Origin: Naegleria gruberi
Lineage: Eukaryota
DNA: 64,000 nucleotides
Assembly: GCA_000004985.1 (NCBI GenBank)
Contig: GG738861.1
Reading direction: 5' to 3' (one strand)
Numbering within the stretch: position 1 is the stretch's first letter; each line of letters begins with the position of its first letter. Position numbers and translations under genes: made by a program. This document shows positions 745 to 37,504 of the stretch, in pieces. Below the pieces are notes generated by a model. It was not told the origin of the DNA and did not search any database. It saw nothing but the letters and a program-made list of their open reading frames with translations.

Positions 745-2320
745 GTAAAGTATTCAGATTGATTTTAATTTTACATAATAGTTTTATTACAAACAAGTTT
801 TTGTTGTTTGTTTGGGAGAATTGAATTGTTTCAAAATCAATAGATTTAGAAACACTTTCTGTGGACAATACCTGGACCGGCATCCTCATATTCTTCCTTG
901 GTGATCCACATTTGTTGGAAAGTGGACAATGAAGCCAAGATGGAACCACCAATCCAGACAGAGTACTTTCTTTCAGGTGGAGCAACAACCTTAATCTTCA
1001 TGGAAGCTGGAGCCATAGCAGTCAATTCCTTGGTCATTCTTTCAGCAATACCTTCGAACATAGTAGTACCACCAGACAAGACAACGTTACCGTACAAGTC
1101 CTTTCTGATATCAATATCACATTTACCAATAGAGTTGAAAGTAGTTTCATGAACACCAGCAGCTTCCATACCAATGAAGTTTGGTTGGAACAAAACTTCT
1201 GGACATCTGAATCTTTCATTACCAACAGTGATAACATTACCGTCTGGCAATTCGTATGACTTTTCAACAGATGATGATTCAGCAGCAACCTTCATTTCAG
1301 CTTCGAAATCCAAAGCAATATAACAGAGCTTTTCCTTAATATCTCTGACGATTTCTCTTTCAGCAGTAGTATTGAATGAGTAACCTCTTTCCATCAAAAT
1401 CTTCATCAAGTAATCAGTCAAATCACGGCCAGCCAAATCCAATCTCAAAATGGCGTGTGGCAAAGCATAACCTTCATAAATTGGAACAGTGTGGGAAACA
1501 CCATCACCAGAGTCCAAAACAATACCAGTGGTTCTACCAGAAGCATACAAGGACAAGACAGCTTGAATAGCGACATACATAGCTGGAACTGAGAAGGTTT
1601 CAAACATAATTTGAGTCATCTTTTCTCTGTTTGCCTTTGGATTCAAAGGAGCTTCAGTCAACAAGACTGGGTGTTCTTCTGGAGCAACTCTCAATTCATT
1701 GTAGAAAGTGTGATGCCAGATCTTTTCCATATCGTCCCAATTGGTAACAATACCGTGTTCAATTGGATACTTCAAAGTCAAAATACCTCTCTTTGATTGA
1801 GCTTCATCACCAACATAGGCATCCTTATTACCCATACCAACCATAATGGACTTTTGCTTTGGTCTACCAATAATTGAAGGGAAGACAGCTCTTGGAGCAT
1901 CATCACCAGCAAAACCAGCTTTACACATACCAGAACCGTTATCGACAACGAGGGCTTGAACGTCTTCACAGAATGACATTTTATAGATTATTTGAATGGA
2001 TTTGTTTTTTTTGATTTTTAATTGATGATTTGTGTGTTAAAAAAATATTTAAATGAAAAATTAATGAAAGAATGATTGATGTGATTGATGGCAAGTCAAA
2101 TTGAAGTTTTAAAAAACTATTTTAGAGGTCATTTTTTAAATGTGGAAAGTCAAGTGAAGAAGAACAACTTTACAATATGACTTTTCATTCTTTTCATTCA
2201 ACACATCATCAAAATTACTAGCAATCAACTGTAAAATTTAACACATCAAACATTGCTTTGTCAACTTACTGTAATTTTCAACGTGGAAAAAATTCATCAA
2301 GTTTGAATGAAACCAACTTC
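745..2320. repeat. arm A of a ~1.57-kb inverted duplication (actin CDS plus ~340 bp 5' flank plus ~100 bp 3' flank)
   Basis: The reverse complement of 1980..2315 matches 8160..8477 with small indels (e.g. aatatttttttaacacacaaatcatcaattaaaaatcaaaaaaaaacaaatccattcaaat). The 3' flank, reverse-complemented 760..845, matches 9612..9707. Similarity ends at about 745 and about 2320. Confidence 0.8.
846..1979 (-). CDS. actin (copy A), 377 aa, single exon
   Basis: Full-length ORF with canonical actin motifs ([68 protein letters not shown]-terminus). Stop is TAA. Codons are those of a highly expressed gene (GGT, GCT, AGA, TTG, CCA). Confidence 0.95.
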
Positions 2321-6637: not shown

Positions 6638-7092
6638 CTCGAGTGCCGGGAATTGAATTTCCTAATTTGGAAGATGACTTCAACAACCAAATAACAATAA
6701 TAAATTGGGTTATTAAATTAATGTTTATTAAATAGTGACCGTTAGGTCACTGATTGTTAATTAATTATTGATGATGATTTGTTGTTGAACAGATACTAAC
6801 CACCACCGATTGTTGTCATAATATTAAACACAGAGTAATCACCGTGTCGCCAAATTCCTTGATAATTATTCATAACTGTAACTTCTTGATCAAAAGGCAC
6901 TCGAGCAATAAACAATTTGATTTCACACAGCCAAAACTCTCGTTCATACTTTGGGTACCGGGAATGAAATTTCCAAATAAGGAATGACCGATATCATTCA
7001 ACTATTACTAACTCATACTCACACTAACAAAACAAATTGAACCCGGGTCGCCAGAGTGACAGTCTGGAATGCTACCACTATACCACACCCGA
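6638..7092 (-). pseudogene. tRNA-Asp(GUC) gene interrupted in the T-loop: 5' part 7092..7035 (nt 1-60), 3' part 6650..6638 (T-stem CCCGG + acceptor CACTCGA + discriminator G)
   Basis: Reverse complement of 7035..7092 is TCGGGTG TG GTAT AGTGGTA GCAT T CCAGA CTGTCAC TCTGG CGAC CCGGG TTCAATT (anticodon GTC). Reverse complement of 6638..6657 is TTCAATT CCCGG CACTCGA G. The acceptor halves pair 7/7 with one G·U, and the T-stem halves pair 5/5. The two parts are 377 bp apart. Confidence 0.75.
6658..7034. mobile_element. 377-bp non-coding insertion in the tRNA-Asp T-loop, flanked by 7-bp direct repeats AATTGAA (6651..6657 and 7035..7041)
   Basis: Left end TTTCCTAATTTGGAAG and right end ...CAACTATTACTAACTCATACTCACACTAACAAAACAA. 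Both ends are homologous to the ends of the 1,333-bp insertion at 23272..24604. It contains an internal second copy of the junction motif at 6951..6985. Confidence 0.55.
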
Positions 7093-8159
7093 TTTCATAT
7101 TAAGTGATAAATATTATTGAATATATAGACGTATTTTCAACAATTTTAAATAATTCTACCAACACCAATCCTGTGGTGAGATCCAGTTTCAAACCCTTTT
7201 AAAGGCATCCATTGCCCATCAGTAATTATAAACGAGTTGATCTCACAATAGTTCCTCGGACAATATTCCAATTTCCTTCAACACGTATTCTTCTTCCAAT
7301 CTCTCAAGCCTTTCCATAAATTGCAATACAATAATGATTCAGAAGTATGAATAAATTCAATAGTATCACATTTACATATAGTACATTTAGAACATGATCA
7401 GCACAGCCATTAGTTTCCCAAATTCCACTCTCTGAAAATCTTAAAGATTCAGTACTATCAGTCTCGTGTAGAAATTAACAAGAATACTGTGATAATTCAT
7501 TCACTCACAGAATTCAATTCAGTAGGTGAAAAGACAGGAAAGTTAATTTGATCTACCTTAAAATTGGTTTCCATCTTTGTCTAGAATATCACCTTAATTC
7601 ATTGAACAAGGGAATTTTCTAGAATATACATGTTAACTTTGCAAGAGCTTATTTCAAAAGATCAACTCTTGACACAAGTGGAAAATTAATCAACTCAAAT
7701 TAACAATGCTGTTCAATCACTGATGTCAAATATTAAAGGGTTCATCCCTATCCCCAATTACTATTCTCTTAAAATCACATAACTTTATCCAAAATGATTT
7801 CCAGTGTTTTCCCTTCTTCATTCCAGAATTAACTGAAGAAATATCATCCACTCAACTAATCATCTCAATAATACATGTGTTTATCTCAAATTATAATGTA
7901 AATATATCCACAGCACACAATGTTGCAACTTGAATTGATTGGAAGAGTAGAGTCACTTTGGGATGATTAAATTTGTTGTAGCCTCTCCACTAAATGTTAA
8001 ACCAACAACAACAATAATACCATCCAATGATAATCAACAATTGACGGCCCTCCAACTAGAAAGGGACAAGAAATAACGATGTGATATTACTATCAATATG
8101 TATGTGGTGGGAATTGTGTGAGCAGATGCAAGAATATTGTAGATGAAGGTTTTCTATTT

Positions 8160-9710
8160 TTTATCAAACTTGATGAATTTTTTCCATGTTGAAAATTACA
8201 GTAAGTTGTTAATTGCAATGTTTGCTGATTGTTTGCTCGTAATGTTTGATGATGTGTTGAATGAAAATAATGAAAAGTCATATTGTAAAGTTGTTCTTCT
8301 TCACTTGACTTTCCACATTTAAAAAATGACCTCTAAAATAGTTTTTTAAACTTCAATTTGACTTGCCATCAATCACATCAATCATTCTATCATTAATTTT
8401 TCATTTAAATATTTTTTTAACACACAAATCATCAATTAAAAATCAAAAAAAAACAAATCCATTCAAATTCTATAAAAATGTCATTCTGTGAAGACGTTCA
8501 AGCCCTCGTTGTCGATAACGGTTCTGGTATGTGTAAAGCTGGTTTTGCTGGTGATGATGCTCCAAGAGCTGTCTTCCCTTCAATTATTGGTAGACCAAAG
8601 CAAAAGTCCATTATGGTTGGTATGGGTAATAAGGATGCCTATGTTGGTGATGAAGCTCAATCCAAGAGAGGTATTTTAACTTTGAAGTATCCAATTGAAC
8701 ACGGTATTGTTACCAATTGGGATGATATGGAAAAGATCTGGCATCACACTTTCTACAATGAATTGAGAGTTGCTCCAGAAGAACATCCAGTCTTGTTGAC
8801 TGAAGCTCCTTTGAATCCAAAGGCCAATAGAGAAAAGATGACTCAAATTATGTTTGAAACTTTCTCAGTTCCAGCTATGTACGTCGCTATTCAAGCTGTC
8901 TTGTCCTTGTATGCTTCTGGTAGAACTACTGGTATTGTTTTGGACTCTGGTGATGGTGTTTCCCACACTGTTCCTATCTATGAAGGTTATGCTTTGCCAC
9001 ACGCCATCTTGAGATTGGATTTGGCTGGTCGTGATTTGACTGATTATTTGATGAAGATTTTGATGGAAAGAGGTTATTCATTCAATACTACTGCTGAAAG
9101 AGAAATTGTCAGAGATATTAAGGAAAAGCTCTGTTATATTGCTTTGGATTTCGAAGCTGAAATGAAGGTTGCTGCTGAATCATCATCAGTTGAAAAGTCA
9201 TACGAATTGCCAGATGGTAATGTTATCACTGTTGGTAACGAAAGATTCAGATGTCCAGAAGTCTTGTTCCAACCAAACTTCATTGGTATGGAAGCTGCTG
9301 GTGTTCATGAAACTACTTTCAACTCCATTGGTAAATGTGATATTGACATCAGAAAGGACTTGTACGGTAACGTTGTCTTGTCTGGTGGTACTACTATGTT
9401 CGAAGGTATTGCTGAAAGAATGACCAAGGAATTGACTGCTATGGCTCCTGCTTCAATGAAGATTAAGGTTGTTGCTCCACCTGAAAGAAAGTACTCTGTC
9501 TGGATTGGTGGTTCCATCTTGGCTTCATTGTCCACTTTCCAACAAATGTGGATCACAAAGGAAGAATATGAGGATGCCGGTCCAGGTATTGTTCACAGAA
9601 AGTGTTTCTAAATCTATTGATTTTGAAACAATTCAATTCTCCCAAACAAACAACAAAAACTTGTTTGTAATAAAACTATTATGTAAAATTAAAATCAATC
9701 TGAATACTTT
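8160..9710. repeat. arm B of the inverted actin duplication
   Basis: See arm A. The arms are separated by ~5.8 kb carrying 3073..6180 and the repeat-rich 6200..8100 region. Confidence 0.8.
8478..9611 (+). CDS. actin (copy B), protein identical to copy A
   Basis: Same 377-aa translation as 846..1979. Nucleotide sequence differs at a few synonymous sites (alternate-frame shadow ORFs 1034..1288 and 9169..9423 differ at 6 of 84 codons). Confidence 0.95.
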
Positions 9711-10004: not shown

Positions 10005-12138
10005 ATGAGCAAACAAGAATTGCAGGAAACCATTGAAAAATCAACTAGCAAGACTGCTGCTGATGAGAGCAGTTTTGAAGAGGAAGAACATGAGGATATC
10101 ACTGCAGATGAACAAGTATTGCAAGATTTTTACAAGAAGGAAGCTCAGATTAAACAAGCTACTAAACCAAAGGAAGAAAAGCCGGTTGCTGCTTCTACTT
10201 ATGAAGATCAGGGAGAAGGTGCACATATGATTGAAATGCCATTAGATAAAACTAAGCTTTCCAAGACTGATATTAGGTCATTGCACAAAGATGAAGTAAA
10301 ACAAGCTAGAAAGGAATTGGACAAGCTTCCGAAGCCTCAAACTTTCCCAAATCATGCTGAAATTAGTTTCTTTGGTGCTTCAGGTACTGTTACTGGTAGT
10401 AAGCACATGATTACTTATGGATCTTTGAATGCTTTGATTGATTGCGGAATGTATCAAGGTTTGAAGGAACTTAGGTATGTTTTTTAATTCTTTCATTTGT
10501 TTTAATTAGATTAATTATCAAAGAGAGAGAAACTGGAAATTAATTTCATCATCAAAACCTGTTGAAACAATGTGTGATGCCATCATTATTACTCACTCTC
10601 ACTTGGATCACACTGGTTATCTTCCAAGGTATGTTTTTTATACAATGTTTTGATACAAATGAAAATTAAAACTATCAAAAATCATCAATCGGAATGAATA
10701 ATTTAATCTTCAATCATCATAATAATATCAAAATAGAATGGTTGCTCTTGGATTTACTGGACCAATCTACATGACAGAACAAACATTTAATTTGACCAAA
10801 CTAATCTTGTTGGATTCTGCTCGTTTACAAGAAGAAGATGCTCACTATGCCAATCACAAAGAAACTACTAAACATGAGGTTGCCCTTCCACTCTATTCCG
10901 AAGAAGATGTTCTCAACTGTTTCAAGTTGGTGAGAACTGTCAAGTATGGAGAAAAAATTGTTGTTAAAAGTAGATTGGATGAAGACAAATTCAGCTTTAA
11001 ATACTTTAATGCAGGACACTTGTTGGGATCATCGTTTGTTGAAATTACTCTTGACACAAAGGAAAAGATTATCTTTTCAGGAGATTTGGGAACTTTCCAC
11101 ACCTCCACTCCAATGCAACAACAACCTCAATTACCAATGGGAGCTGATTATGTTATTTGTGAAGCTACTTATGGTGGCAAGTCACACATTGATTTTGCAA
11201 CTGGTAGAGCTGCTGAGGATCAAGATTACATTATTGAAACTAAGGTTAAACCAGCGTTGAAACAAGCTGTTGAACATATTGTGGAAAATGATGGTGTAAT
11301 TCTTATTCCAGCTTTTGCCATTGGTCGTTCTCAAACTATTGCTTATCACTTGTTAAAGATGATGAGAGAGAAGGAAATTCCAACACTTCCTGTCCACATG
11401 AACTCTCCAATGTCAGTTGAAGCTCTTGATTTTTATCAACAATATTTATTGGACGAACATCAAAAGGATGCACACGAAATTTTGAGAGATGTCATTTGCC
11501 ATAATAGTGCTAAGGAATCTAAGGAACTTCACAAAAAGCTCAAGGATGGTTATTCTAAATGTGTCATTATCAGTAGTAGTGGTATGATGACAGGTGGTCG
11601 TTGTTTATTCCACTTTGAAGAATTGGCTCCTCATGAAAAGAACGTTCTCTTATTGAGTGGTTTCCAAGCTGAAGGTACAAGAGGTAGAGACTTGCTTAAT
11701 GGTGTCAGAGATATCAAATTATTGGGCAAGACTGTCAATGTTAAATGCCAAGTCATGCAAGTCCAAGGTTTGTCTGCTCACGGTGATACTGATGATGTTA
11801 TTAAATGGATTGAGGCTGCCAAAAATCCAAAACCAAAGATGGTTTTCGTTGTCCACGGAGAACCAACCTCACTCCGTAGTATGGCTAGAGAAATTTGTGT
11901 TGAATTGGATGTTAATGCTCTCGTTCCAAAGAGAGGTACAACATTCCACATGAGAACTGAACTCTCCTTCAGTCACAGTAGAAGAGCTAGTGTTGTTTCA
12001 ACCAATAACAGTTTACAAGATGTCATTTCAAGCAATATGCCTGATATTCCAAAACTTGGAAAGACCAATATGGTTCACGTGATGTATGCTGGTATTATTT
12101 TAATTGCCTTTATTGCCTTCCTTTTAAGATTCTTTTAA
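10005..12138 (+). CDS. bacterial-type β-CASP metallo-β-lactamase-fold RNA-metabolising hydrolase with acidic N-terminal extension and C-terminal TM anchor; 3 exons (10005..10474, ~10524..10628, 10737..12138)
   Basis: FFGASGTVTGSKHMI...LIDCGMYQG and AIIITHSHLDHTGYLP (HxHxDH), split by introns GTATGT...AG (~49 nt) and GTATGT...AAATAG (10629..10736). Also FNAGHLLGSS, YVICEATYGG, LSAHGD and VHGEP β-CASP motifs. C-terminus has hydrophobic helix AGIILIAFIAFLL. Confidence 0.7.
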
Positions 12139-12403: not shown

Positions 12404-13781
12404 ATGGTCTCTAAATTATCATCAACAAGGAGTCTGTCGTCCTTTGCGATTGTACTCACCATTTTGTTCTCCATACTCGTATTGTGTAGTGCCGCAGATG
12501 AGAAGAAAACAGTTACCAGACAAACAAAAACCAACTCTGTCTATGAAACTCATGATGTTATCGATTTAGTGGTTGAAAAGTTGTGGTCTAAATACAACCC
12601 ATCAGAAACTTATAGTTATAAACAATTACCATTTTGCGATGCTAAAGGATCAACAGATACTTCATTGGGTGAAGAACTTACTGGTAGTGCTGATTCTGTC
12701 ATTTCAAATTATGATATTAGATTTGAAGGTTTGTTATTGCTTGTGTTAATTCAATCCCACTTACTATTAATTCTTTTCAACAATTTACTTTGATTGTATT
12801 ATTTTCTTTCTAATAATAATAATACCTAACAACAATAATACAATAATTAACATTAATAATGATAATGATAATAATAATTGATAATGTAAAATTCTAGTCG
12901 ATGTTCCTGCCGAGACTGAACTTTGCTCCAAGTCATTGAACAAGGAAGATTTGTCACTTTTACGTTCCTCAATCAAGGAAGATTATCTCATGCTCATGTA
13001 TTATGATGGTATTCCAATGATTGTTCACATTGGTTATTATGACACTGTTGAACACAAGTATTATCTTTACAATAGCTACAAATTCTCTTTGACTTACAAT
13101 GGTAATCATGTTATTACTGCTGTTGCTCAACCTTCTTCCAAGGTTGATATTTCTTCCGATGATGTTACTCTCATCAAGTTTAAATATTCAGCTGAATGGC
13201 AACAAACAGCCAAACAATACGTTACACGTGTTAATTACTTTATTGGTATGAACTTTAATAGTGATGAATTGGAAATCCAATGGTTCTCAATTATTAACAG
13301 CTTGATCTTTATCCTTGTTTTGACATCATTCTTGACATTTATCATTATTCGTATGCTCAGAAAGGATTATGATGCTATGGATTTGGTAATACACTATATT
13401 GAACTCCATTATTTGTATTTGAGTATGTGGGGTCAATATGGTCACGTTCCATTCCCAATTGTTTTGATGGTTGTCTTGATTTTGATTGCTGTCACTAGTT
13501 GCATTACCATTTCTCTCATTTATTTGACTCTCTCACAAGAAAACCACAATTGGTGGTGGAGAAGTATCAAGTTTGGTGGTACTAGCAGTATTTTCGTTTT
13601 TGGTTATTCCCTCTATTACTACATTATGGAAAGTGGCATGTCAGGCACTCTCCAAACAACCTTCTTTGTTGGTTACAACTTGGTTATTGCCTTTGCTGTT
13701 TTCTTAATGATGAGTACTGTTGGTTTCCTCTCTAGTTTGACCTTTGTCAAGAATATTTATAGTTCTATTAAGTGTGAATAA
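12404..13781 (+). CDS. TM9SF/nonaspanin-like membrane protein; 2 exons (12404..12728, 12898..13781)
   Basis: Signal peptide MVSKLSS...LVLCSAADE. Signatures YKQLPFC...SLGEELTG, YYDGIPMIVHIGYYD and C-terminal multi-TM region ending FVKNIYSSIKCE. Intron GTTTGT...TCTAG of 169 nt. Shorter than typical TM9SF, so further introns may be unresolved. Confidence 0.55.
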
Positions 13782-22782: not shown

Positions 22783-23271
22783 TTTATTGTCAATTTAACT
22801 CCAACATGTCCATATTCGCAATTCAAAATTCAAATGAGGTGAATGTGAGCCAAATTGGGGTAACAATTAATATTCATCTTTTTTGATCATTACTTAACTA
22901 TATTTGTACATAATAACCTGGGTTTAGAACTATGAGAATTGCGGAAGAGGTCCTCTTCATTGCTTGTACGATTATGTACAGTAATTGAGTTTGGGTACTG
23001 TCTTGTCCTTAATTAATTGATAAATTTTGCAAACAAATAAAATCGAATTCCAATTCTATTCTGGGTAGCCAAACTCACGCTGCATTACCCCAACTCTAAT
23101 ACTAATTGGTTTAAAAAAAATTAAAAATGACCCATTCTCAAAAAGAATTGGGATTAGAGGTAGTAATATTTGGATGGAAGATAGTAATTAATGTCTGGTT
23201 TTAGTGATAATCAAACAAAATGTAAAAGGAGGCTAAGAAAAGTAACTGGTTTGCGTCGACCGGGAATTGAA

Positions 23272-24604
23272 ATTTCCTTTTTTGGAATTCATTTAACTTT
23301 TAATTTTATGATGAAATTATGAATTATTTATTTTAATATTATTCATGATGTGAAACATCATGTTGAATTCTGTTCATTATTTTTAATTCATGATGTGAAA
23401 CATCATGTTGAATTATTAACAAATGTTGTTCTTCAATTTTTCATTGAATGTTGTTCTTTCAATGAATGTTGGAATAAGTGTCCAGTATATGATAGAATTG
23501 TTAATACAAGTAAGTTTTCTATTATTTTATATTTATTAATTGACTCACGGGTAATGGAATTTCCTTTTTTGTAAATCATCATGATTGATGATGATTGATG
23601 ATGATTAAATAATAATAATTTATTATTTTATAGATGATGGTACAATTAGATTTGTTAGTACATATCCTAATTGTATTTTAAAGAAAGAAAATTCACCAAC
23701 TAAAATTGAAGATATTATTCGTGAATATGAAGATGTAAAAGTTGTTTTAAATGAATTAGGTAAATCAACAACAAAAATTTATTCATCAGATACAACAAAA
23801 CATATGAATTTCCTAAAAGTTTTATTTATTTATGTAATGGTAATATTAAATATGATCAATCATTAAATATATCACAAGGAATTTATACAATTAAAATTCA
23901 AGATGATGAACATGATCACAAATATTATTATTTATTCGGAAGAGGTTTATTATTTCTATCAATTACATTACAAATGATTCCAACATTTAGTTTAAACAAG
24001 TATTATTATGAAATTGTATTGAATGATTTAAGTAACACATATTTTGATAAGAATGAAATTATTCAATATAAAATTGAAATTTTGCCATCAAATATTATTC
24101 AACAATATTCTAAACGAAAGTTTCTTGTTAGAAAAGATAGTCAAAAGAACTCAAGATTTATTACATATCAACCTGACGCTCAATCACCATCAAAGAAAAC
24201 AAAGAAGAATAACATTATTGAAAGTGATATTGAAGATTTCGATTGCAATATTAAAGATATTGATGATTGGGTATAGGGAAACGGAATTTCCTAATTGGGA
24301 ATGTCATCACACAATAAATTAAATTTATTATTTATTCATTGATGTTCACAAACTGTGAATTAACACATTACATGATGAAACAATTCAAACATTTACTCAA
24401 ACTTTAAACATTAACCATCGGGTAACGGATTTTAATACATGTACTAGTATGTTTATTAATTGGTCGACGCACATAAATTTAAATAAACAAAATTAACAAG
24501 ATTTTAAACAAAATCCTACATAGAGTTGGAGAACGGGAAATGAAATTCCCAAATTGAAATTGAGAAACAACTATTCATTTCACAATAATTCATACTATCA
24601 AAAT
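23272..24604. mobile_element. 1,333-bp insertion in the tRNA-Gly T-loop, flanked by 7-bp direct repeats AATTGAA (23265..23271 and 24605..24611); carries ORFs
   Basis: Left end ATTTCCTTTTTTGGAATTC and right end ...CAACTATTCATTTCACAATAATTCATACTATCAAAATG are homologous to the ends of the 377-bp insertion at 6658..7034. It contains internal junction-motif copies at 23541..23575, 24272..24300 and 24528..24560, and a 45-bp tandem duplication at 23341..23414. Confidence 0.55.
23608..24279 (+). CDS. insertion-internal ORFs (frame 23608..23848 overlapping frame 23764..24279), hypothetical protein with AT3-biased codons
   Basis: Two overlapping open frames (~80 and ~171 codons) that could be joined by one short intron or a frameshift. 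Leu is almost all TTA and Lys AAA, unlike host genes (TTG/AAG). There is a possible 3' splice site TTATTTTATAG at 23622..23633. No transposase or integrase motif is recognisable. Confidence 0.3.
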
Positions 24605-24969
24605 GAATTGAACCCGGGTCACGGCGATGGCAACGCCGTATTCTACCACTAAACCATCGACGCTTCTTGTTAAGATATTAAGGTTCCTTAATTTAATATA
24701 AGGAATATCCAAAATGCTTAAAGTACAACACAACAAGAATTGAGTATTCGTTTGAACATGCTGTAAAATATTTCAAATTATGCTAAGATCATTTGATGTA
24801 TTTAATGCCATAGGGCATTGAGAGCCATCATTTGAAGATTCAAATAGTATGTTCTTGATTTTATCTGATAAAGCACAAGAATAACATTTCATCCACTAAA
24901 TTTTATAAATGTTGACTGTGTTACATAATAGTATTTAATTATTATTGAAATGAGGATAACAATAAATTA

Positions 24970-29540: not shown

Positions 29541-31049
29541 TTATATAATTCTCTTTTTATTGAGCAATACATCTTCAGATGATTCAGTTCTTCCTCTCTT
29601 CAGGCTGCTGTTGCTGCAATGAGATTGGAGGAAGGTATCAAAACTGCTAATGGAAGGCAAAATTTGTTGTGAGGAGGAATGATATTGTACAGGGGAGGTT
29701 GTTGGCTTTTCATCAAAGAAGGTTGAAATATTTGGAAGAGATTGATGAGCTGATTGTGATCCAACATGGTGGCAGCAATTGGATGCTGAATGTTTTTGCT
29801 GAGAATAAGCCAAACCAGAAGAACCTGTAGGTTGTTGAGCTGGATAATATTGAACTTCACACTTTGCTTGATAGGAATAAGTATTTGCCAAATGATTCTG
29901 TTGAACTGTTTGATTGTAAGCTTGGAAAGCTCCCTTTGGTTGTGACTTATTCTTTGGACTTCCCATTAGAGTGGAATTTTGTTGCACATTGAATGAAATA
30001 TTGCTTGCTGTGGATGGGCTTGATAGGCTACATATGGAGCCATTATTCGGAGACAAGCATGCTGGATTCTTCTCGACGTTTCCTGTAATCTTGACAATTT
30101 TGTTTGGTTTCTTGTTTGGCTTATTGGTAGCCAATGGTGATGATTGCTGCTGCTGACCAACACAATTCGAATTATCCACAATGACCATTGAATTGCTGTG
30201 TGGCTGTGGTGTTGATCTGAACTTTTTCCTTTGTTGTGGTGGATAGCAGGTTAGTGGTGGACAACCCGTCTCAATAACAGAACACAACTGTTCAAAGTGA
30301 GAAGTAACTGTATTGAATTGGGTAACCTTCTTGGCATTGGTTTTTGGCCACCTGGACACACCCAATACATTCAAACGTTCCTTCAAATCCCTCCATGAAA
30401 CCTTCAGAGCAGTACAAGCATCTTGTCTCGTCAAGTGGTAATGTCTAGATATTTCCTCGAGTGTGAGTGAGGCAGCAATGTTTCTATAGCTCTCAGATGG
30501 ACATGGTCTCTTATACTTTTCCTTTGTGAGGCCATTGATATTGGTTGGACTTGGAGAGGAATCATCTGAGGAGGAGTTTGTGCAATACACTGTTTGATTG
30601 TAAGAATTAATTGTATTGTTATTGTTATTATTTTGAGTAGTATTAGTATTAATATTGGAAGTTGTTCTTGATGGAGAGGAGGTTGATTGTGAGTGATTAT
30701 TGTTATTATTATTATTATTATTGTTAACCATCTTTGTATGAATGACCATAGGACGAGCCTTAGTCGATGATGAATTAAAGTAATTATTATGAAGTGTATG
30801 AAAGGAAGCTTGAACTGAAGGTGTATTATTATTCACAACAACAGAATTAGTAGAAGGAGCCAACACTCCTTCAGCAGATTCAGAGCAGCACTGATTAGAA
30901 GAATTTACAGGACATGTAGAGTCATGGGAGGATGGTTGCTTAGTAGTATTGGTCTGTATTGGAATGACGGTATATTCTGGTCGATGAGAATGGTATTGCT
31001 GATTATAATTGTGGGCGAAGTGCAGCTGTTGTTGTGGATTGTTATTCAT
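29541..31049 (-). CDS. RWP-RK domain putative transcription factor with long poly-N/poly-Q/S tracts, 502 aa
   Basis: ASLTLEEISRHYHLTRQDACTALKVSWRDLKERLNVLGVSRWPKT matches the RWP-RK domain consensus. Poly-N runs come from AAT repeats at 30600..30740. Confidence 0.55.
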   Translation of the reverse strand: MNNNPQQQLHFAHNYNQQYHSHRPEYTVIPIQTNTTKQPSSHDSTCPVNSSNQCCSESAEGVLAPSTNSVVVNNNTPSVQASFHTLHNNYFNSSSTKARPMVIHTKMVNNNNNNNNNNHSQSTSSPSRTTSNINTNTTQNNNNNNTINSYNQTVYCTNSSSDDSSPSPTNINGLTKEKYKRPCPSESYRNIAASLTLEEISRHYHLTRQDACTALKVSWRDLKERLNVLGVSRWPKTNAKKVTQFNTVTSHFEQLCSVIETGCPPLTCYPPQQRKKFRSTPQPHSNSMVIVDNSNCVGQQQQSSPLATNKPNKKPNKIVKITGNVEKNPACLSPNNGSICSLSSPSTASNISFNVQQNSTLMGSPKNKSQPKGAFQAYNQTVQQNHLANTYSYQAKCEVQYYPAQQPTGSSGLAYSQQKHSASNCCHHVGSQSAHQSLPNISTFFDEKPTTSPVQYHSSSQQILPSISSFDTFLQSHCSNSSLKRGRTESSEDVLLNKKRII

Positions 31050-32165: not shown

Positions 32166-32238
32166 CGCCCACCGTGGGGGTCGAACCCACGACCACAAGG
32201 TTAAGAGCCTTGCGCTCTACCGACTGAGCTAGACGGGC
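32166..32238 (-). tRNA. tRNA-Lys(CUU), 73 nt, intact
   Basis: Reverse complement is GCCCGTC TA GCTC AGTCGGT AGAGC G CAAGG CTCTTAA CCTTG TGGTC GTGGG TTCGACC CCCAC GGTGGGC G. Cloverleaf with anticodon CTT and conserved GTTCGA T-loop. Confidence 0.9.
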
Positions 32239-32394: not shown

Positions 32395-34355
32395 ATGAAC
32401 AAACGACATCTAGCTGTAGAAATTCTAAACGATCAGTTCGGAGACATTATTGGCAAGGTTGGTTCTGTTCTTTTAGAACAAGGACCTCAGACCATGACGG
32501 ATTTGATTCAAAATACATCATTGCAATTTCCTCAAGTCAGAAATGCTCTCCTTGTTTTAATTCAACACAACATGTGTGTCTATTTTGACAAGAATATATA
32601 TCAACAAAAATTAGAACATGGATCAAAGAATGCGGAAGAGGAAGATGACATGAAAACACAAACAGAAAAATTGAGAGAACAAGAGGAAAGGAGAGAAAAG
32701 TGGAAGCATAAAGGTGGAGGTAATGATACAGCACCAGTCACTGTACCTATTGAGGAAGAAGAATCGGAACAAATTAAAGCAGAAAAACAAAAACAATTCG
32801 AAAGACAAAGCAAAATTATTTATTATCAAGTAATCATTGAAAATATTATTATGAGGTTGAAGAGTGCCAAGTTATTATATACCATTAGGACAAGTTATGG
32901 TATTGATGCAGAAGAATTGTTGCACATTCTCTTACAACACGGCAGATTGACAATGAAGGAATTAATTCAAAAAGCTTTGGAAAATATTACACAAACAGGT
33001 AGGTTTTACCCAAATATTTTGAGTGTATTGAATACTGTTATTGTTTATTTAATCTATTATTATTGTTAATTAATATTACTTTTAAACTCGGAATAACCCA
33101 CTCTCAATTTTATTAATTTTTATTATTATTATATTATTATTATCATAATAATAATATTTAAAAAGATTATACATTTGCCACTGAAAGTAAAAAGACATCC
33201 TTCATCACTGCCTTCCAAAAGATGGTCAAGGACAGATTTATCAAGAGAGTTCAGCCATATGTTTCATCCATTCAACTTCAAGAACAAAAGAAAAATGCAA
33301 AGGAAGGAGGATCAAACTCTACAACAGATTTACTTCAAAAGTACTCCAAACAAAACAAGGAATCTAAAAAGAAATCGGACAAGTCAAAGAAGAGAAAGAC
33401 AATTGAAGATGAAGATGGCAGCTCTCAATATGAACCTGAAAAGAAAAAGAAGAAGGGAACAAGTTCAGAAATTTCACCACTCGAATTTGACACTGAAGAA
33501 TTTGATTCAATTGATGAAGATGAAATTCATATTGATGCTGAAAATATTTTGTGGACTACCAATTACTCACAATTTATCAGAACTTTCAGAAATGAATCCA
33601 TCATTAAATATGTTGAAACCAAGATGGGAGAACAATTTGCATCCATTGTTAAAGCTGCCTTTGATGAAACTGCACCATATCAAAGATCTAAGAATGATCC
33701 AATGTCAACACCACTCAAATTTGAAAAATTATATGATAGAATATCAGAAACTGAGGAAATTGGTAGAAAGGTATTGGAAAATAACTTGAGTTTCCTCTGT
33801 AATCCAGAATTGGATATTTTGAGAGCTATGGGTAAGGACACTTATTTCATTAATTTGAAAGGTGTTGCCGATAAACTCAAAAAGCAAGAAACTGAAGTCA
33901 TCATTTCACAAAAATACAGTGTGATTGGATGTAGATTATTCAGATTATTGCTTGAAAAGAAGTATTTGGAACAGACTCATATTGCCGAATGTGCACTTTT
34001 ACCACCTTGTGAAGCTAGAACTCTATTGATGAACATGTTGAGAGGCTCCATCCTTCATTTACAAGAAGTACCTAAGAGTAAGGATCGTAGCGCTCAACAA
34101 ACCTTCTTCCTGTGGAGTGTCAAGTTGGAACAAGTTTATGAAAAGATTATCGATGACATGTACAAATCTGTAAGAAATTTGAGAATTAGATTAAAGAAAG
34201 AACAACAACATATAATTGAATCAGGCATTCTCGAAAGCACCTATTTGAGTGAAGAACAAGAAGAACAAATCAGACGATTGAAAAACATTGAAGACAGATT
34301 AGAAGCCTCTCTCATCAAACTAGTTGACCTCATTACTTTATTCGAAGATTTTTAA
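32395..34355 (+). CDS. RNA polymerase III subunit RPC82/RPC3-like; 2 exons (32395..32998, 33166..34355)
   Basis: N-terminal winged-helix region FGDIIGKVGSVLLEQGPQTMTDLIQNTSL...VRNALLVLIQHNM and LLQHGRLTMKELIQKALENI resemble Rpc82. Intron GTAGGT...AAAAAG of 167 nt keeps the frame into 33166. Confidence 0.55.
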
Positions 34356-37233: not shown

Positions 37234-37504
37234 AAAAGATTGTAAATAAATATCGACTTTTTCAACTTTCCAATACTAAAACCCAACAGGTTGGCACCTT
37301 ATCAGTCAACTAGCCTCAGACAAACAAAGTGGAGAAAATCAAAAAGACAAAAGACTACAGCACCACAGGTTCCCAAGTTGTCTCCAACCTCAGTACTGAT
37401 GTGGCTCGACGATGCTTAACTTCTCAAATCGGACGGGATGAGGTGCATTCATCGTGATATGGCCGTAGCCATTCATAACCCTAAAACAATGAATGTAAAG
37501 AATA

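Follow-up and report, generated by a model that had tools for sequence, protein, structure and literature searches.

Dada elements insert at fixed positions within multicopy genes for small RNAs, tRNAs among them, where they produce 6-7-bp TSDs and carry no TIRs; their non-autonomous derivatives occupy the same site, they also form tandem insertions and copies with chimeric tRNA flanks, and they are known in the protist Perkinsus (Kojima & Jurka 2013, PMC3706591; PMC8869645). Of the Dada families known to target tRNA genes, most use a site at nt 8-13 (A box). The TSD of Dada-tL is GCGTTCA, which in our own reading resembles the T-arm region.

Multicopy RNA genes are also the target of site-specific non-LTR retrotransposons of the R1/R2, Utopia and Dewa/Mutsu type (PMC4640811). 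In the literature searched, we found no report of Dada in Naegleria or Heterolobosea and no description of tRNA-targeting elements in Naegleria or of T-loop insertions in eukaryotic tRNA genes. To our knowledge, no family of non-LTR retrotransposons is aimed at the tRNA T-loop. In prokaryotes, integrative elements reportedly use the T-loop of tRNA genes as a crossover site. The Mauriceville and Varkud retroplasmids of Neurospora mitochondria produce cDNAs that gain tRNA 3'-end sequence by template switching and integrate at tRNA genes.

We analysed a gene-dense stretch of 64 kb (34% GC) from Naegleria gruberi, hereafter the window; the genome of this species contains about 924 tDNAs. The ORF at 29541-31049 (minus strand) encodes a product identical to N. 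gruberi XP_002678597.1. Two of the three tRNA genes in the window are inactivated by inserts. These two genes, tRNA-Gly(GCC) and tRNA-Asp(GTC), lie 17 kb apart in the same orientation and are cut at the identical nucleotide of the T-loop by inserts that also share their orientation (Table 1). They have in common the T-arm CCGGG-TTCAATT-CCCGG, identical over 17 nt, whereas the uninterrupted tRNA-Lys of the window has another one (GTGGG-TTCGACC-CCCAC). A perfect 7-bp duplication of the T-loop, TTCAATT, stands on either side of both inserts and corresponds to a TSD. The position of the insert within multicopy small-RNA genes is thus fixed, being the same nucleotide in tRNA-Gly, in tRNA-Asp and in the tRNA-Gly junction of a related strain described below.

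Table 1. Features of the two interrupted tRNA loci (window coordinates).
Feature	Coordinates	Strand	Remarks
tRNA-Gly(GCC), 5' part through T-loop	24606..24663	-	heptamer copy 24606-24612; A and B boxes kept; TTTT directly downstream
tRNA-Gly(GCC), 3' part	23252..23271	-	TTCAATT (23265-23271), CCCGG, TCGACGC, discriminator A; 20 nt
Composite insert in tRNA-Gly, 1,334 bp	23272..24605	-	23% GC vs 34% in the window; excision restores the tRNA
Proximal block Y, Gly locus, 134 nt	24472..24605	-	homologous to block Y of the Asp locus (129 nt)
Exact inverted copy of tRNA-Gly nt 64-73, GGTCGACGCA	24462..24471	+	followed by CA; tRNA-sense TGCGTCGACC
Motif copy A, inside block Y	24526-24559	-	plus-strand coordinates including acceptor-like flank
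Degenerate motif copy G	24411..24438	-	CGGG and TAACGGA kept, ATTTCC gone; better preserved in L128
Internal motif copy B	24267..24301	-	TTCC-CAATTA-GGAAAT TCCGTTT CCC TATACCCAA
Internal motif copy C	23540..23574	-	tRNA-sense TTAC-AAAAAA-GGAAAT TCCATTA CCCGT GAGTCAA; diverged copy in L128
Motif copy D, distal terminus TTCC-AAAAAA-GGAAAT abutting the T-loop	23272..23287	-	genuine junction; 23252-23287 including acceptor-like flank
Orphan open frame	23764..24276	+	23974-24276 annotated as XP_002678484.1, 'predicted protein' (NAEGRDRAFT_66102), 100 aa, wholly inside the insert
tRNA-Asp(GTC), 5' part through T-loop	7035..7092	-	heptamer copy 7035-7041; then TGTTTTG
tRNA-Asp(GTC), 3' part	6638..6657	-	T-loop copy 6651-6657, CCCGG, CACTCGA, G
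Insert in tRNA-Asp, 377 bp	6658..7034	-	terminus F 6658-6672, motif copy E 6951-6984, block Y 6906-7034
Exact inverted copy of tRNA-Asp nt 64-73, GGCACTCGAG	6896..6905	+	followed by CA; tRNA-sense CTCGAGTGCC

Deletion of the insert together with one heptamer yields a canonical 71-nt cloverleaf for both tRNA-Gly and tRNA-Asp, and the rebuilt tRNA-Gly agrees in its acceptor and T-stem with the intact tRNA-Gly(GCC) genes of Willaertia magna. The 3' part of tRNA-Gly is located 1.3 kb downstream of the 5' part on the same strand, with a T4 terminator in its native 3' flank. The tRNA-Gly called by ARAGORN at 24593-24664 in reality comprises just the first 58 nt of the gene, up to and including the T-loop; this truncated form reaches 21.2 bits, below the Rfam gathering score of 29, and permissive Rfam scans of both loci detected nothing except it. 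The W. magna sequence (L129) contains two intact tRNA-Gly(GCC) genes (7634-7704 and 13560-13631) in opposite orientation around a Beta-CASP orthologue, with the T-loops TTCTATT and TTCGATT, compared with TTCAATT in both split N. gruberi genes. The sequences from N. fowleri (L123) and two other relatives (L122 and L130) contain no tRNA genes.

Several other features of the window are worth recording. The Beta-CASP/RMMBL metallo-hydrolase encoded at 10738-12138 has its best matches outside Naegleria and Willaertia in bacteria (Acidobacteriota and others, 35-40% identity), which suggests a bacterial-type enzyme, possibly acquired by transfer. The split tRNA-Asp locus is bracketed by a 1.56-kb inverted duplication (747-2306 and 8164-9710, 96.4% identity) that holds two actin genes encoding an identical protein (846-1979, minus strand; 8478-9611, plus strand). 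The intact tRNA-Lys(CTT) (32166-32238), the gene for the RNA polymerase III subunit RPC82 (two ORF pieces, 32395-34355) and a dispersed 5S rRNA gene (37352-37470) lie within 5 kb of one another.

The two inserts resemble each other at their ends and in their general layout. In the sense of the tRNA, both open with YRTTTTG (CATTTTG at the Gly locus, TGTTTTG at the Asp locus), which places a T4 Pol III terminator right behind the tRNA 5' part, and both close with TTCC-N6-GGAAA(T). The ends are without TIR, their symmetry (TTTTG/CAAAA) being weak; the TTCC of the T-loop/T-stem pairs with the terminus TTCC-N6-GGAA, and no conserved sub-terminal pair is common to both ends. Three components follow one another in the same order in both inserts: block Y, an inverted copy of nt 64-73 of the host tRNA (hereafter the 10-mer) and a variable body with the terminal motif. 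This body measures about 1.17 kb at the Gly locus and 0.22 kb at the Asp locus, and its start again resembles the canonical element start; the middles of the two inserts are otherwise unrelated.

At both loci, block Y is composed of a mini-element of 61-66 nt whose start and end are canonical, an internal copy of the terminus motif together with its T-loop-like heptamer and CCCGK, and a tail of about 50-55 nt. The version at the Gly locus corresponds to the 61-nt mini-element b (24545-24605; starting with CATTTTG and ending with GGGAAT), motif copy A and a tail of about 55 nt. The local alignment of the two blocks (about 130 nt) has a score of 90.5, where shuffles give 48.6 +/- 5.9 and the best of 956 real segments of the window gives 77, so that the region at 23-24 kb and the Asp locus share structure past the motif, in keeping with the preliminary description of this DNA. 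A further shared segment, 'W', located upstream of copy C and of the 10-mer, scores 42.5 against 30.3 +/- 4.2 for shuffles (maximum 44), which is marginal, and we do not rely on it. The Gly insert also includes two perfect 29-nt copies at 23341-23414, spaced by 45 nt and each with the hairpin CATGATGTGAAACATCATG; a weak match of these positions to the Rfam family 'Fusobacteriales-1' was rejected as spurious. In the body of the Asp insert, a hairpin with a 7-bp stem and a 4-nt loop (AGTGACC-GTTA-GGTCACT, at about 6734-6751) is part of a stable predicted fold.

The motif at the closing end, TTCC-N6-GGAAAT followed by a T-loop-like heptamer and CCCG, occurs in six to seven copies in the 64-kb window, which share one orientation and are confined to the two split tRNAs. 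The copies that the preliminary description had listed between 23541 and 24560 all exist, copy G being degenerate in that it lacks ATTTCC, and the association of the motif with tRNA sites, as opposed to a dispersed distribution, is borne out within the window. A strict form of the motif has five matches, all on the plus strand and all at the two split tRNAs, where 0.19 would be expected from Markov-1 simulations, an enrichment to be read in the light of the fact that the pattern was derived from these very copies. A metagenome-wide DNA scan for TTCC-N6-GGAAA-T-loop-TCC produced 120 loci, all of them chance matches in unrelated sequence, most of it bacterial. Conservation across all copies covers only about 25-30 nt, at the end adjoining the tRNA 3' half; the upstream sequences are unrelated and not nested.

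Two earlier suggestions about the motif have to be revised. Its centre had been proposed to be palindromic, as in a protein-binding site, yet the exact decamer GGAAATTTCC is found nowhere in the window; the copies read GGAATTTCC, TGAAATTTCC or TGAAATTCCC, so that the centre is merely an imperfect palindrome, and the constant symmetry is that of TTCC-N6-GGAA, followed by another TTCC. The flanks had been described as acceptor-like and different from copy to copy, but they are not pieces of different tRNAs. The 7-8 nt past CCCG resemble one another (TTGACTCA, TTGGGTATA, TTAACCAT, TTGGAGAA and TTGGGTAC, all of the form TT[GA][GA]...) and match no tRNA acceptor; as acceptor strands, they would require tRNAs starting with UUG or UUA, and no inverted partners of these flanks are present in the window. 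Their sequences suggest that the flanks go back, with divergence, to a single ancestral sequence borne by the element.

The preliminary description was right to recognise an oppositely oriented tRNA-Gly 3' end inside the large insert, although it placed it at 24461..24470, one base away from its true position (Table 1). Its interpretation as the product of random rearrangement does not hold, since the Asp insert contains the equivalent copy of its own tRNA in the corresponding place. Within the 64 kb, each 10-mer is found just twice, in its own tRNA 3' part and after block Y, and its distance from the T-loop is 134 nt at the Gly locus and 129 nt at the Asp locus, directly after the homologous block in both cases. 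The presence of a host-specific copy at an equal relative position in both inserts indicates that the inverted 3' end is a systematic feature; it constitutes a mechanistic clue, as no standard transposition model predicts such a copy. The Asp 10-mer differs from the 5' acceptor strand (TCGGGTG) and was therefore copied from the 3' strand. Both 10-mers end exactly at the discriminator, i.e., the 3' end of an RNase Z-processed tRNA. This boundary may point to the mature tRNA 3' end as an RNA template, but it could equally reflect a cut at a constant distance of 20 nt from the T-loop; both tRNAs have the same geometry, which makes these readings inseparable here.

The tRNA-Gly junction was also found in an independent metagenome assembly (sample ERZ929261) that includes a strain 99% identical in CDS and 97% identical in intergenic regions; the junction contig (L124) stops 22 nt into the insert. 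A second contig of the same sample (L128, 559 nt) contains copies C, B and G, the inverted 10-mer and the start of block Y. It is only about 88% identical, lacks about 700 nt of the interior and exhibits an additional inverted duplication of copy B (about 105 nt) beside the 10-mer. This contig may be either an orthologue or a paralogous copy of the interior of the Gly insert. Both contigs end inside block Y (window-equivalent positions 24583 and 24520, respectively), which is consistent with a multi-copy repeat disrupting short-read assembly. The tRNA-Gly junction is thus not an artefact, and the interior varies structurally between copies.

The annotated protein encoded inside the Gly insert, XP_002678484.1, has no Pfam match, forms a singleton cluster and has no homologues detectable by word-based protein search; an exhaustive HMMER search with the insert ORF retrieved nothing but this ORF and, in the related strain, a fragment of 44 aa. 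Since it has no homologues and most of it is missing from L128, this protein is probably a spurious gene call. No transposase, reverse transcriptase, endonuclease or integrase/recombinase was detected by Pfam in the 33 window ORFs of at least 200 aa and two ORF-like translations of the Gly insert, and a query in which the proteins on either side of the two loci were joined end to end gave no protein matches. The class of enzyme proposed below is for this reason deduced from the architecture of the inserts.

The flagged region is well supported as the interior of an insertion that splits tRNA-Gly and in which small copies of mobile elements are piled up over 1.3 kb. The preliminary description, which saw here a graveyard of insertions and rearrangements, is supported as to repeated insertion, given the stacked or nested copies of an element terminus joined to a T-arm-like remnant, and not supported as to rearrangement in the case of the inverted tRNA 3' end. 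We favour, with moderate confidence, the view that both inserts are stacked non-autonomous copies of a T-loop-specific family of mobile elements with a Dada-like cut-and-paste logic. The precise cuts at both boundaries between loop and stem of a palindromic T-arm, the 7-bp duplication and the short non-autonomous copies fit site-specific cut-and-paste best. This reading rests on the identical split position and 7-bp TSD in two tRNAs whose cloverleaves are restored by excision, and on target T-arms that are identical to each other and different from that of the intact tRNA-Lys. That the inserts represent a family, apparently undescribed and hitting one fixed site in tRNA genes, is suggested by the restriction of the motif to these loci, by the shared ends and 130-nt block combined with unrelated middles, and by the junction in the related strain. 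The targeting of tRNA genes is plausible given the large and safe pool that about 924 tDNAs offer.

According to this cut-and-paste scheme, the target would be the 7-nt T-loop of tRNA genes with the T-arm CCGGG-TTCAATT-CCCGG. A sequence-specific enzyme would recognise the palindromic T-stem and cut with a stagger of 7 nt across the loop; the element would then be joined in, and gap repair would yield the 7-bp duplication. Such a scheme follows the logic of a DDE cut-and-paste transposon, whose candidate enzyme would be encoded elsewhere in the genome. The internal motif copies may correspond to older terminus-plus-target junctions that were absorbed into a composite: block Y would consist of mini-element b, such a junction and a tail, and the composite would then have spread as a unit, generating head-to-tail stacks. 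The inverted nt 64-73, which separate block Y from the next element, could have been templated as a by-product when the element integrated or the site was repaired, through a strand switch, snap-back or the opening of a hairpin. Several observations count against cut-and-paste. No transposase was found in the window or the inserts, and the family is represented by only two loci and one partial relative. A simple model does not predict the inverted tRNA nt 64-73 that part the tandem units, and the conservation of only the end of about 25 nt beside the tRNA 3' half, with variable sequence upstream, is typical of TPRT retroposons too.

A SINE-like or 5'-truncated non-LTR retroposon inserted by TPRT is a serious rival, even if we consider it rather unlikely. 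A site-specific endonuclease would nick the antisense strand at the T-loop boundary, and the A-rich 3' tail of the RNA (…CCAAAAAAGGAAAU, possibly with read-through T-loop/T-stem sequence annealing to the target) would be reverse-transcribed from the nick, with the inverted tRNA 3' end arising from template switching or snap-back at the 5' junction. Such a process would explain why every one of the six to seven copies keeps about 25 nt beside the tRNA 3' half and has unrelated sequence upstream, why the tail is purine/A-rich, why several junctions resemble starts truncated at the 5' end (AGTATGAA behind copy E; TTTTGATCAAG and CATACTAG behind the 10-mers) and why extra templated nucleotides, ending at the mature 3' end of the tRNA, stand at the would-be 5' junction. 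However, both outer junctions are nucleotide-precise with an exact 7-bp TSD at both loci, and truncated copies of one master should have more than 25 nt in common. Moreover, the strand required for a tRNA-RNA template (element sense being the window plus strand) is opposite to the strand with the conserved 3' ends, and the window is devoid of an RT/endonuclease ORF, although autonomous copies could be located elsewhere. The 10-mer is also central to another proposal, in which integration would be coupled to the target tRNA. The 10-nt complement of the host 3' end, either carried by the element or acquired at each insertion, would form a tRNA-like acceptor/T-arm minihelix with the retained tRNA 3' half and the GGAA-N6-UUCC hairpin; this 'top half' may guide the element to its cognate gene, serve as a handle to recruit RNase P, RNase Z or the CCA-adding enzyme, or both. 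The match to the host at the same relative position in both loci agrees with such a role, as does the predicted fold of the Asp unit (MFE -69.1 kcal/mol, z = -4.7), in which a 10-bp helix between the 10-mer and the tRNA 3' end closes beside the hairpin to give a putative acceptor/T-arm-like top half. The 10-mer of L128, by contrast, carries one substitution (GGTCGACACA), which argues against constraint; the complement reaches the discriminator, suggesting copying over selection for an acceptor stem; and the many T-runs of the inserts would stop Pol III. With n = 2, we regard a function of this kind as improbable.

The geometry of the target itself, in which perfect 5-bp inverted repeats enclose a 7-bp spacer, is that of a classic core site, and could point to circular cassettes integrated by a tyrosine recombinase, with the T-loop as 7-bp crossover, the T-stem arms as core sites and the internal motifs as hybrid att sites. 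The same heptamer on either side of the insert and the arrays of units in one orientation, each bounded by a related site of about 35 nt, would agree with this, but the attP core deduced from the junctions, GGAAAT-TTCAATT-CATTTTG, has no inverted-repeat arms, the intact tRNA is not regenerated (the 5' part continues into CATTTTG or TGTTTTG), and the window contains no recombinase gene. Furthermore, the variant heptamers at internal sites would call for improbable hybrid sites and the inverted 10-mer is not predicted, so that we give this model little credence. Least credible of all, in our opinion, is that nothing mobile is involved and that the loci are tRNA genes with a giant intron in the T-loop or split tRNA genes, arose as an assembly artefact or reflect one-off local rearrangements of tRNA pseudogenes. 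Non-canonical tRNA introns and split or permuted tRNAs do occur in archaea and in Cyanidioschyzon, and provide a precedent. Nevertheless, an intron would not duplicate the T-loop, the 5' part is directly followed by TTTT, the 377-bp and the 1,334-bp insert have common termini, the same architecture is present in two unlinked tRNA species, and the junction is reproduced in an independent assembly. A split or intron-containing tRNA gene, whose exons should abut with no duplication, was specifically rejected on the T-loop being present twice and on the T4 Pol III terminator after the 5' part. Two other classes of elements were discarded as well: an LTR retrotransposon, as the inserts have no terminal direct repeats and the 10-mer is preceded by ATG/TTG and not by TGG, and a Helitron, on the basis of the junction sequences.

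If confirmed as a family, the T-loop-specific elements proposed here would include the first eukaryotic tRNA T-loop cutter known to us, and the first in Heterolobosea. Elements at one fixed nucleotide of multicopy RNA genes are rare and represent natural models for safe-harbour gene delivery. If the frequency of two in three is typical, a sizeable share of the approximately 924 N. gruberi tDNAs may be dead, affecting tRNA-gene counts and inferences on codon usage. Should integration turn out to be coupled to the target tRNA, this would be a target-specific transposition mechanism not described for any eukaryotic element.

Among the known systems, the Mauriceville and Varkud retroplasmids differ from the Naegleria inserts in being mitochondrial, plasmid-borne and equipped with an RT, for which no counterpart was identified at the Naegleria loci. 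The prokaryotic T-loop integrative elements have in common with these inserts the same tRNA sublocation, a symmetric T-stem with a 7-nt loop; they carry an integrase and a replacement 3' tRNA segment, so that the gene stays intact, whereas the Naegleria gene is destroyed and the window contains no integrase. Elements of the R1/R2/Utopia type resemble the inserts in their fixed target in RNA genes, in their conserved 3' ends and variable 5' parts, in the templated nucleotides at their 5' junctions and in possible read-through annealing; the Naegleria inserts differ from them in lacking an RT/EN ORF and in having two precise junctions with an exact 7-bp TSD. Among known kinds, Dada comes nearest to the inserts. 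Pfam gave no match to a transposase, which in Dada is a DDE enzyme with the C/DxxH signature, in the 33 window ORFs of at least 200 aa or the two translations of the Gly insert. Tandem Dada copies are parted by the TSD, whereas the Naegleria units are parted by the inverted tRNA nt 64-73, and Dada insertions in tRNA genes are mostly at nt 8-13 instead of the T-loop. Like the Naegleria inserts, Dada elements combine a 6-7-bp TSD (here a perfect 7-bp one) with a fixed site in small-RNA genes, and the lack of TIRs may be a further resemblance.
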